This document shows positions 3,001 to 6,000 of a DNA stretch of 6,119 nt, in pieces. Position 1 is the stretch's first letter, and each line of letters starts with the position of its first letter. Position numbers: made by a program. The stretch is from a virus (lineage: Duplodnaviria; Heunggongvirae; Uroviricota; Caudoviricetes): the IMG/VR virus record IMGVR_UViG_2630968639_000003. One strand, given 5' to 3'.

Positions 3001-6000
3001 TTATCCCACAGCAGTTTCACCCTGCCATTAACCACCTTCTCCACCAGCTCTTCCGCCACGATCTGACGCGCCTCTTCTTCCGAAAAAATGTCGGGGTTAT
3101 CCGGAAAACGGACGGTATACGGGGCGGCTTCACTGACAGAGACCACTGGCAGGGCAAAACGGGCGTACAGCATTTCCTTGACGGTATCGGAGCCCACCTC
3201 ACACAAAAACACACCACGCTGGTTGCGCTTTTTGGGCATGGTGATCACCGGCTTGCCGTACACCGATGCCCCTTTTATGGGAAGCACAAAAAAAGTGCCG
3301 TGTTTCCTGGAACGCTGATACACAATGTCCTGGTCGATACCACCGGTATCCCAGCAGACACGGGAAATGGAAATTTCAGTACCGTCAGCATGACGATATT
3401 TTTTCCGGATCACCGTATCAACACGTTTAAGGGTGTCCTCGTCTTCCGGTCGCCCCATGATAATTTGCTTATCAATCAGAAAGGCTTCTTCGCCGGGAGC
3501 CCAGCCCCAGACATAAATTTCATAGCGATCTTTCTGGGAGTCGATCCCGGCGGTCAGGTAAACCACCCGCAGGGGAACCTGCGCACCATAGTGGCAGACT
3601 TTTTCCAGCAACAACTCAAAGCTCAGTTTTTCTGCCACGGCCTCTTCATAGGGCTCCCCGAGCGTGGTGTTAATAAACGTCTTAACACCGTTCGGATCCT
3701 TCAGCGCATCCAGCCAGTCATAAACAATCTGTACCCAGGTGGTGAACGGACTGTACGCTGTCCACACGTGGTACGTGATTGAGCGCGGTGGCGGCATCTC
3801 CTCATCACCGGCGCTGTAAAATGCCAGGCCGTCGCGCGTCCACATCCCGGTATTGTCACAAATCCAGCGCCCGTCGGTCTGGTCAAGTTCCGACTGCCGG
3901 ATCACACAGCCATTATGTTCACACAGGTAATACACCGTTTCCGGTTTACCCTTCTCCCATTTCAGGCCAAACGGCGTCGCATCATCGCCAAACTTCAGAT
4001 ACTGGGCCTCCCCGCAATGAGGGCAAGGGACATAAAACCGCATGAAATGCGCAGATTCATTCGCGGCTTTCTCAATCTGGCAGGAGCCTTTAATTTTCGG
4101 CGTTGAGCCGCGTATGGATTTAGGCCATACCGAGCCTTCGATACGTTTATCGCCAAGCAGCGTCGGCGAGCCTTCTTTTTCCACATCCGGTTCAAACGAG
4201 GAGAGTTCGTCATAGCAGACCACATCCACAGATTTTTCACGGTAGTTTTTAGCTGCGGCACCGCCCAGGCACCAGAACCCCACGCCGGAGGAAAAACGCT
4301 TCAGGGTAAGTGTATTATCGCGGTGCTTTCTTCCGTACCATGGAGCCAGCTCCAGCAATGCAGGGACATCCCTGATCGTTGGCTCAACATGAGATTTCAT
4401 GAAATCTTCTGCCGCAGAATCTGTTGGCTGAAAAAGCAGACTGTTACGGGATTTATGCTCAATAAAATAAGCCTCCACCCCCAACAGCATTTTGGTGTAA
4501 CCAACGCGCGCCGATTTAATCAGATTAACGGTGCGGATCCGGTCATTTCCCATGCTGTTCATAATGGCAACCTGAAACGGCAGGGTTTCCCATTGTCCGG
4601 GAGTGTATGAAGATTCTTTCGGCAGATAATAATGTTGATCAGCCCACTGAACCGTCGTCAGTGGAACCGGAATATTGAGAGATAAAAGCCCTGTAGCTAT
4701 CGCACCGGCTGCATTAGCTGCCTTCTGTGCGTCTGAAATCATCAATCCACCTGCCCACGTTTTCACCGGCTTTAGCTGCAACATTGGAGGCTTTCGCGAT
4801 TTCAGTTTTCACCACATCAAGGTGTGATGGTGAAATATCCGGATATTTACGCTGTAATGTCAGCGGCACACGTACAAGTATCCCCGAAATCTCCTGTGCC
4901 ACACGTTGCAGAATGAAGGTAAACAATTCCGTTTCCAGCACCAGCCCTTCTTCACGGGCATTTTTCAGCTCCTGTGCGTCAGCCTGTGCTTTGGTGAGCC
5001 GGTAGCGTTCATAGTCAATGGTGCCGGGTTGTAAATCTGATTCTGCAGCCGCACGCAAATCTTCCAGTTCTTTGCGGAGCTTTTCGTTTTCGATATCTTT
5101 TTCCCGCTGCGCATACCACTCAATGGCTTCTGCAGTATTGAACATGGCTTCGATACCTTTGCCTCCCCCCGACAAAACTCTCAGCCCCTGACTTTGCCAG
5201 CCAGTGATTGTTCTGACATCGCACTCAAAAATTTCCGCCAGTTTCTTTTTGTTAACCTTCACGGCACATATTCCTCACAAAAAGAAGAAAGGATCTCAAA
5301 ACGCTTTTTTCAGCGAAAAATCACCGCTGCCAGATCCTTTCTTTTTTTTAAGAAAACCCTATTAAACAACAGGTTAGCCAGAAGAAGAACGGATCTGCTT
5401 TTTCCCTGAAAATTTTCATAAATAGCGCGTTTTTGCGCGTCCCCAGACCCTCGGTGTTTCAGGTTCTGGAAAGGACCCATAAAAAAGAGAACAATTATCA
5501 TTGCATTGAAGACATCAATCTTGTTGTATTGCCACAAATCAGGGCCATTAAACAAACATGTCAAAGAATAACAATTCAAAGTGACCTGCCAATTAATAGG
5601 CCTGATAACTAATTAATGATATTTCCGTTTTCCCGCTAGAATATGTTCTATAATGCAGGATAACTTTTGTATTTTCATTCAAAGCATTAATTATTGATTG
5701 TTTTGATATGTCTGGAAATTGGTTTTGAATATCAGCAACCAATGTTTCAAGATAAAGATCAACCTCTCTGCGCGGTGGTACACAACATAAATTGTATAAA
5801 TAGTTATTAACTATATTCGTAACATTTCTCATGCCCACAATGCCTCATGATAAAAAATATTAACCTGTATTCACTCCTGATATAATATCATAAAAAAAAT
5901 CCAACTTATCCTTTCCATCAAAGTGGTAATGACTCCAACTTATTGATAGTGTTTTATGTTCAGATAATGCCCGATGACTTTGTCATGCAGCTCCACCGAT

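Follow-up and report, generated by a model that had tools for sequence, protein, structure and literature searches.

What kind of gene, if any, lies in the AT-rich DNA between the cohesive-end site (cos) of a lambda-like prophage and the IS1 element beside it? The locus is a 6,119-nucleotide (nt) stretch of IMG/VR virus record IMGVR_UViG_2630968639_000003 (Caudoviricetes), called the window here at its full length; it is the packaging end of the prophage, with the genes read on the minus strand. An earlier note on this DNA had pointed to a moron-like insert holding one small open reading frame (ORF), which we call ORF79. Here we report that ORF79 belongs to a small gene family that is real and under purifying selection, and on balance we take it, with some reserve, to be a genuine moron, that is, an optional late-region cargo gene of temperate Enterobacterales phages. 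The core of the earlier reading, a compositionally foreign, moron-like accessory gene beside cos, is upheld.

The compositional contrast is pronounced. Measured over 120 nt at a time, G+C content is 25.8% at 5640-5759, 30.0% at 5580-5699 and 32-35% at 5700-5939, against 53.8% for the packaging genes (window 1-5262), in keeping with the AT-rich insert first described. The low-G+C zone is wider than first stated, extending from about 5280 to 5940 and taking in the cos region (34-41%). It holds the single ORF already noted (5593-5838, minus strand, 81 amino acids (aa) from a GTG codon), whose translation is exactly as given before and whose orientation is that of the genes for terS, terL, W, portal and S49 protease. 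What does not stand is the GTG start: the alignment of the family and the independent gene call P0001 both give the ATG at 5832 and a protein of 79 aa, so that the ATG is probably the true start and the GTG unused. The elements of the segment are as follows.

5593..5832, minus strand, stop codon included: ORF79 coding sequence (CDS), 79 aa, MRNVTNIVNNYLYNLCC...EISLISYQAY
5833..5838, minus strand: in-frame upstream GTG (the 81-aa start), 4 nt from GAGG; homologues all align from the ATG
5843..5846, minus strand: weak Shine-Dalgarno (SD)-like GAGG, with 10 nt separating it from the ATG and 4 nt from the GTG
5890-5882, minus strand: candidate extended -10-like sequence TGATATTAT, part of a near-palindrome
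5503..5924, no strand: variable AT-rich cargo segment, with a homology boundary at position 6423 of the intact E. coli prophage L001 (window 5502); intact prophages have a longer segment that runs on upstream to include a 70-aa lipoprotein-like ORF
5925..6119, minus strand: end of IS1A, with inverted repeat GGTAATGACTCC at 5925

The earlier finding of no recognisable similarity holds for the annotated collections and fails beyond them. For the ORF79 protein there is no Pfam family at cut-off, no match in PHROGs and no PADLOC family (a single chance-level JetA match, E = 0.035, was returned for one member), and a sequence-profile search of the PDB gave nothing beyond chance level. Among 5.8 billion proteins its own 90% cluster was the sole match. 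HMMER over 1.84 billion cluster representatives found four proteins of 80-84 aa matching end to end at 36-47% identity, and two rounds of profile searching brought the family to 11 clusters of proteins of about 80 aa, aligned end to end at 36-49% identity; a third iteration added no further members. Judged from these alignments, ORF79 is not a strict orphan. The named source organisms are Citrobacter amalonaticus and Buttiauxella gaviniae. Longer HMMER matches in several stretches (P0003, P0006, P0007, P0009, P0010) were set aside; P0007, P0009 and P0010, the three whose sequences were read, are repeat proteins that have only a short helix motif or repeat stretch in common with the family.

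The family is rare. The segment is carried by 14 of the 5426 complete E. coli genomes, no family member occurs in the 185,579 species representatives of GTDB, and no ORF79 match came from a tblastn search of 50,697 phage and 72,556 plasmid records. In IMG/VR only two loci were found, the same prophage and one frameshifted copy.

Conservation is seen in the protein and not only in the DNA. Two motifs, L-Y-N-x-C-C and E-I-S-L-I-S-Y, are invariant or nearly so across the family. In pairwise Nei-Gojobori estimates among members, the one unsaturated pair (L008 and L014) has a ratio of nonsynonymous to synonymous substitution rates (dN/dS) of 0.28 at dS 0.32, and in every other pair the proportion of nonsynonymous differences (pN) is 0.27-0.46 against 0.69-0.89 for synonymous ones (pS). 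ORF79 is 100% identical in seven E. coli loci; across these copies the region from the IS1 site to terS has 13 variable columns (two of them alignment-end gaps), none inside ORF79, whose 240 nt make up 36% of the region compared. The only disrupted copies, P0015 and P0016, are frameshifted and lie in prophages without head genes. Full-length homologues, pN below pS and the invariant columns of the ORF together indicate a real gene under purifying selection.

The AlphaFold2 model of the protein is confident (mean predicted local distance difference test score 92.3; predicted template-modelling score 0.80). Its predicted topology, a1-b1-a2-a3-b2-b3, is that of a winged helix, a three-helix bundle with a beta-hairpin wing, and three members have weak, sub-threshold Pfam matches to the Cac1_C winged-helix domain. 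An invariant Cys-Cys pair ends helix 1 and the invariant EISLISY forms the last strand, with the conserved residues placed on helix 1 (the Cys-Cys pair included) and on strands 2 and 3. Foldseek against BFVD and the PDB gave no match at E<=1e-3. Helix 3 and the wing are the DNA-contacting elements of classical winged-helix regulators. In this family neither has conserved Lys or Arg (helix 3 reads EKEVVVALEN, KEEILGALES or QAAI.. in examples; the wing consensus is YSDxx), and the isoelectric point (pI) is 4.5-5.1 in 6 of the 9 distinct members. Because the recognition helix and wing are without conserved basic residues and most members are acidic, we think it fairly probable that the domain binds protein rather than DNA.

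The C-terminal half of ORF79 bears a vague resemblance to the C-termini of LT-II and CT B subunits. BLASTP against LT-II B (eltIIbB) and a SubB-like subunit found nothing (E = 0.5 and 18, over 3-8 residues), and the model, a winged helix and not an oligonucleotide/oligosaccharide-binding (OB) fold, also speaks against an AB5 B subunit. With no similarity to toxin subunits and a complete single-domain fold, ORF79 is no degraded remnant of some larger gene.

The genomic settings of the family are those expected of cargo. The gene occurs at four junctions: between lysis genes and cos-terS in the window and in L001; where a MuF-like head protein adjoins a DUF2213 scaffold/protease gene (L011, L014, L027, L029); where a Terminase_3 large subunit is next to a gene that is portal-like by sequence reading, with no family search (L028); and divergent from terS (L013). 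Three packaging systems accompany it: a lambda-type cos terminase, a Terminase_2/Terminase_6 pair and a Terminase_3 large subunit. From one context to another, shared sequence runs out within about 100 nt on the upstream side of the family gene and 44 nt on the downstream side. In every context the CDS is 7-24 points below its flanks in G+C (0.29-0.43 against 0.50-0.54 in the window, L008, L011, L013, L014, L019 and L028), and in most relatives it follows a late gene at 10-60 nt with a strong SD. Relatives with the same flanking genes are without ORF79 or have other cargo in its place, which together with the foreign composition of the CDS bears out its moron-like character. In the E. coli lineage a block of about 970 bp, from a lipoprotein ORF to terS, is common to all carriers, and lambdoid prophages that share this cos and terS but are not carriers are homologous only from window 5502 (L001 6423); in one of them, SerU-LTIIb, the last slot before cos is occupied by the LT-II genes (eltIIAB).

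The seven copies from outside E. coli also have, downstream of the stop codon, a conserved hairpin followed by a T-run (GGTCGC..GCGRCC, then T6-8). It is significantly more stable than shuffled sequences in six of the seven (z -2.4 to -5.4), and TTATTGCCTGAAATCC follows the T-run in six of them, L008 being the exception. The hairpin is kept even in the different terL/portal context of L028, with a stem that is changed on both sides (GGTCGAC/GTCGACC). The terminator-like hairpins are located as follows.

L008 8262-8285: terminator-like hairpin
L011 2708-2732: terminator-like hairpin
L019 7866-7890: terminator-like hairpin
L027 3701-3725: terminator-like hairpin
L028 3039-3066: terminator-like hairpin
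L029 759-782: terminator-like hairpin

The anatomy of the family in these relatives is that of a textbook moron, though the window copy is without a terminator.

A winged helix placed among packaging genes could also be a small DNA-binding protein, either a regulator of neighbouring late or moron genes or a packaging factor acting near cos or pac. We consider this unlikely. The fold itself is compatible with it, all contexts are in or beside packaging or head modules, the window gene is the last before cos (the cos-like region lies about 140 nt downstream of the ORF79 stop), and one member is basic (pI 8.9). However, most members are acidic, with Asp or Glu in helix 3 and the wing where DNA binders have Lys or Arg; a common DNA site is unlikely because the gene occurs with three unrelated packaging systems; and close relatives of each phage manage without it.

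That the product is instead a head-assembly or virion-associated protein (an internal or ejected protein, or an assembly chaperone) is improbable. The gene is always co-oriented with head or packaging genes and sits tightly behind them (10-60 nt, strong SD), most commonly directly after the MuF-like head protein. Yet it accompanies three types of head module while being absent from close relatives with the same module, it has a foreign composition and its own terminator, and it survives in prophage remnants from which the head genes are gone.

Small acidic proteins just downstream of MuF genes follow the pattern of MuF polymorphic toxin/immunity pairs, and the E. coli prophage lineage carries ADP-ribosylating toxin genes. 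ORF79 could on these grounds be an immunity or antitoxin partner of a MuF-fused toxin or of the AB5 toxin of the prophage, which we regard as very improbable. The MuF proteins are 296-330 aa long, with the MuF domain ending about 30 aa from the C-terminus (in those of 296 and 327 aa) and no toxin domain, by which the MuF version is largely refuted, and neither the window phage nor L028 has a MuF gene. As for the AB5 version, the toxin genes of L001 are 3 kb distant, on the far side of the lysis genes, other carriers such as L004, L005 and L007 do not have them, and ORF79 has no similarity to toxin subunits.

The expression signals of the window copy are less convincing than those of its relatives. 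The SD proposed earlier is present as GAGG, weaker than the GGAGG with a 5-nt spacer found in all relatives. The proposed extended -10 sequence is likewise present; such matches are no more frequent than chance (3 in the window, 3.6 expected), and a consensus promoter scan listed nothing upstream of ORF79 in the window, so that 5882..5890 is a promoter candidate only. It belongs to a near-palindrome, ATGATATTATATCA (window 5878-5890), that gives an extended -10 reading on both strands, with TGATATAAT at 5878-5886 on the plus strand. Scanning and folding revealed no terminator 3' of ORF79 in the window (z -0.14), and Rfam on both strands of 5200-6119 returned one chance-level microRNA match only.

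This copy also belongs to a damaged prophage. IS1 adjoins the AT-rich insert as noted before, its inverted repeat beginning at 5925, 92 nt upstream of the ATG. In the identical strain the IS1A element (L002 5238-6006; flanks CAAGAAGCT and ACTTTGATG) has no target-site duplication, and the DNA to its left (a Q gene and three reverse-oriented hypotheticals) has no homology to the intact prophage. Because of these two features we conclude that a rearrangement associated with IS1 has cost the prophage its toxin and lysis region together with any late-promoter read-through. The prophage in the window is defective, and expression of its ORF79 would consequently depend on the candidate local promoter or on outward transcription from IS1.

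Several of these points weigh against the moron interpretation. The window copy has a weak SD, a promoter candidate at chance level and no terminator, and the Prokaryotic Genome Annotation Pipeline (PGAP) leaves ORF79 uncalled in all 14 complete E. coli carriers. The window protein has no PADLOC match and a net charge of 0, and P0008 is basic (pI 8.9), so the argument from acidity is not uniform. A winged helix is generic and, with no Foldseek match in BFVD or the PDB at the threshold used, confers no functional specificity. No conserved neighbour gene points to a partner, and the rarity of the family makes a strong or general selective value doubtful. Least credible of all is that ORF79 is no gene but a chance ORF in an AT-rich spacer or a decayed remnant: the missing annotation in 14 of 14 genomes, the weak translation signals, the lack of a significant promoter or terminator and the defective prophage would fit, but homologues of full length sharing 36-49% identity, pN values far below pS, a confident single-domain fold and invariant motifs show the family to be clearly coding, and at most the window copy could be silent.

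The remainder of the window is conventional. The DNA of E. coli ETEC1746, annotated by PGAP, is 99.98% identical to it over all 6119 bases, and the genes and motifs downstream of ORF79 are the following.

4714-5262, minus strand: terS (Nu1-like terminase small subunit), the next gene downstream of ORF79; from the ORF and the PGAP annotation in ETEC1746
2826-4784, minus strand: terL, terminase large subunit
2613-2822, minus strand: W gene
1045-2616, minus strand: portal gene
minus strand: S49 protease (C-like) gene, from the ORF and the PGAP annotation
5439-5450, minus strand: cosN-like motif GGGTCTGGGGAC
5381-5391, minus strand: cosB R-like motif CGTTCTTCTTC

The motifs at 5381-5450 are presumably cos elements, judging by their resemblance to the lambda cos sequence. 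The cos-like region is kept at 93-96% in other lambdoid prophages, SerU-LTIIb included. An 89-aa ORF on the minus strand (window 5310-5579) overlaps it and has a counterpart at L003 6461-6679, a stretch named 'NU1-like protein' by the depositors of SerU-LTIIb and usually left unannotated by PGAP; because cos accounts for the conservation there, this ORF is probably spurious.

In the intact E. coli prophage of STEC309 (L001) the order is Q region, scabin-like ADP-ribosyltransferase with a SubB-like B subunit, two holins, M15 endolysin, small ORFs, a 70-aa lipoprotein-like ORF, ORF79, cos and terS. The toxin genes, whose ADP-ribosyltransferase is related to scabin and whose AB5 B subunit is of the subtilase family, occupy L001 2403-3621 between the Q region and the holins at 28-41% G+C. 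A Cys-rich 71-aa ORF, unannotated and without a Pfam match at E<=0.01, is found in the cargo region at L001 5302-5517 (MSFKHYYVNKNAQSNGDHEVHAEGC...CYWCAKECHTS), and terL of the STEC309 prophage is annotated as frameshifted. The 70-aa ORF (L001 5689-5901), which has a lipoprotein-like signal (..FLLVGC) and no Pfam match, always precedes ORF79 in the E. coli copies; its position is just beyond window 5924, where the window has IS1 in its place. Its product could be a lipoprotein resembling Bor or an o-spanin, or could be a functional partner.

Sister lambdoid prophages that share this cos and terS have, in the slot before cos, an acidic 98-aa hypothetical (MEKTENKPIVIG...) with no Pfam family, unrelated to ORF79 (hhalign probability 0.1%).

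L030 2141-2437: 98-aa ORF before cos
L031 1981-2277: 98-aa ORF before cos
L032 2140-2436: 98-aa ORF before cos

The MuF/DUF2213 junction is likewise a cargo hotspot. Among the loci compared there (L023-L026) it is empty (26 nt) in Erwinia phage 49 (vB_EhrS_49) and holds 370 nt of unannotated DNA in Cronobacter ENT47670, a 158-aa ORF in Klebsiella ST11-VIM1phi8.1 and a 64-aa ORF in Hafnia Pocitis76. A seemingly split terS or intron-like insertion in Citrobacter was rejected. The 113-aa Terminase_2 ORF concerned (L008 7649-7990, L016 7649-7990, L018 2309-2650) is an in-frame deletion fusion whose 5' part corresponds to terS of L014 and whose 3' part corresponds to the end of L014 MuF, the deletion having taken terL, the portal gene and most of MuF. 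The Citrobacter copies beside it are best read, from this alignment, as prophage decay of the MuF arrangement and not as targeted insertion.

Viewed against the morons of Hendrix and Juhala (lambda bor and lom, HK97 gp15, the LT-II genes of SerU-LTIIb), ORF79 is likewise an extra gene of foreign composition in the late region, and most of its relatives likewise form a compact unit with their own SD and terminator hairpin. Unlike those morons, ORF79 has no demonstrable promoter, its window copy has no terminator, and its product, very small and predicted to be cytoplasmic, is not an envelope protein or a toxin. Transcription factors with this fold (Fur/PerR, MarR, PadR, CtsR) have an added dimerisation or sensor domain and a basic recognition helix and wing, whereas ORF79 is a bare domain from a mostly acidic family with no above-threshold Pfam match. 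To the winged helices that mediate protein contacts (ESCRT-II Vps22/36, the cullin WHB domain, the kleisin winged-helix domain (WHD) of Scc1/JetB) ORF79 has only 5-15% identity, with nothing to suggest that they share an ancestor or a partner, and the ORF79 family has motifs of its own, YNxCC and EISLISY.

An acr locus lies between the head genes of Mu-like Pseudomonas phages. Like anti-CRISPR and other anti-defence cargo, the ORF79 family is small, mostly acidic, rare and patchy, and lies between head genes at an ORF-swapping hotspot. It differs in having no conserved aca-type helix-turn-helix (HTH) neighbour in any family context and neither a sequence match nor a close structural one to solved anti-defence proteins in the PDB. 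ORF79 falls outside the known sequence families of Pfam, PHROG, PADLOC and the PDB, and we regard it as representing an uncharacterised small-protein family carried as a moron.

In this reading the product of ORF79 is a cytoplasmic, single-domain winged-helix protein of 79 aa. Judging from the close spacing behind a late gene, the strong SD and the terminator hairpin of most relatives, it is reasonably likely to be expressed along with the late proteins, and possibly also from its own promoter in the lysogen. The residue pattern suggests that it would bind a factor of the host or of a rival phage rather than DNA. That it inhibits or modulates some system of the host or of a competitor, in a role of the anti-defence or exclusion type and not as a structural or regulatory part of the phage, is a tentative guess at best; among the functions listed in the earlier note, the toxin or immunity-fragment version is disfavoured. 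Bolder still, and quite unlikely, is that the family represents a new class of small phage inhibitors in which a bare winged-helix domain mimics a protein-docking module. Candidates for such mimicry would be the kleisin C-terminal WHD that caps SMC heads (Wadjet/Lamassu) or the docking domain of a sensor of terminase or portal. A mimic of this kind, made with the packaging and head proteins, would blunt host defence triggered late in infection, and its invariant Cys-Cys pair would take part in an intermolecular metal site or bond covalently to the target.

The extreme rarity of the family limits its general importance. Within that limit, it adds a confidently folded and selectively maintained small-protein family to the unannotated cargo of phages, represented by a gene that RefSeq annotation omits in every complete E. 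coli carrier and for which neither Pfam nor PHROGs has a model. It also draws attention to two hotspots for cargo in the late region of Enterobacterales phages: the position of the last gene before cos in lambda-like prophages, a slot that holds LT-II enterotoxin genes in a related prophage, and the MuF/DUF2213 junction in another group of siphophages. ORF79 may be one more hypothetical moron; should it prove to inhibit a competing phage or a defence of the host, it would instead offer a compact new tool and a new mechanism.

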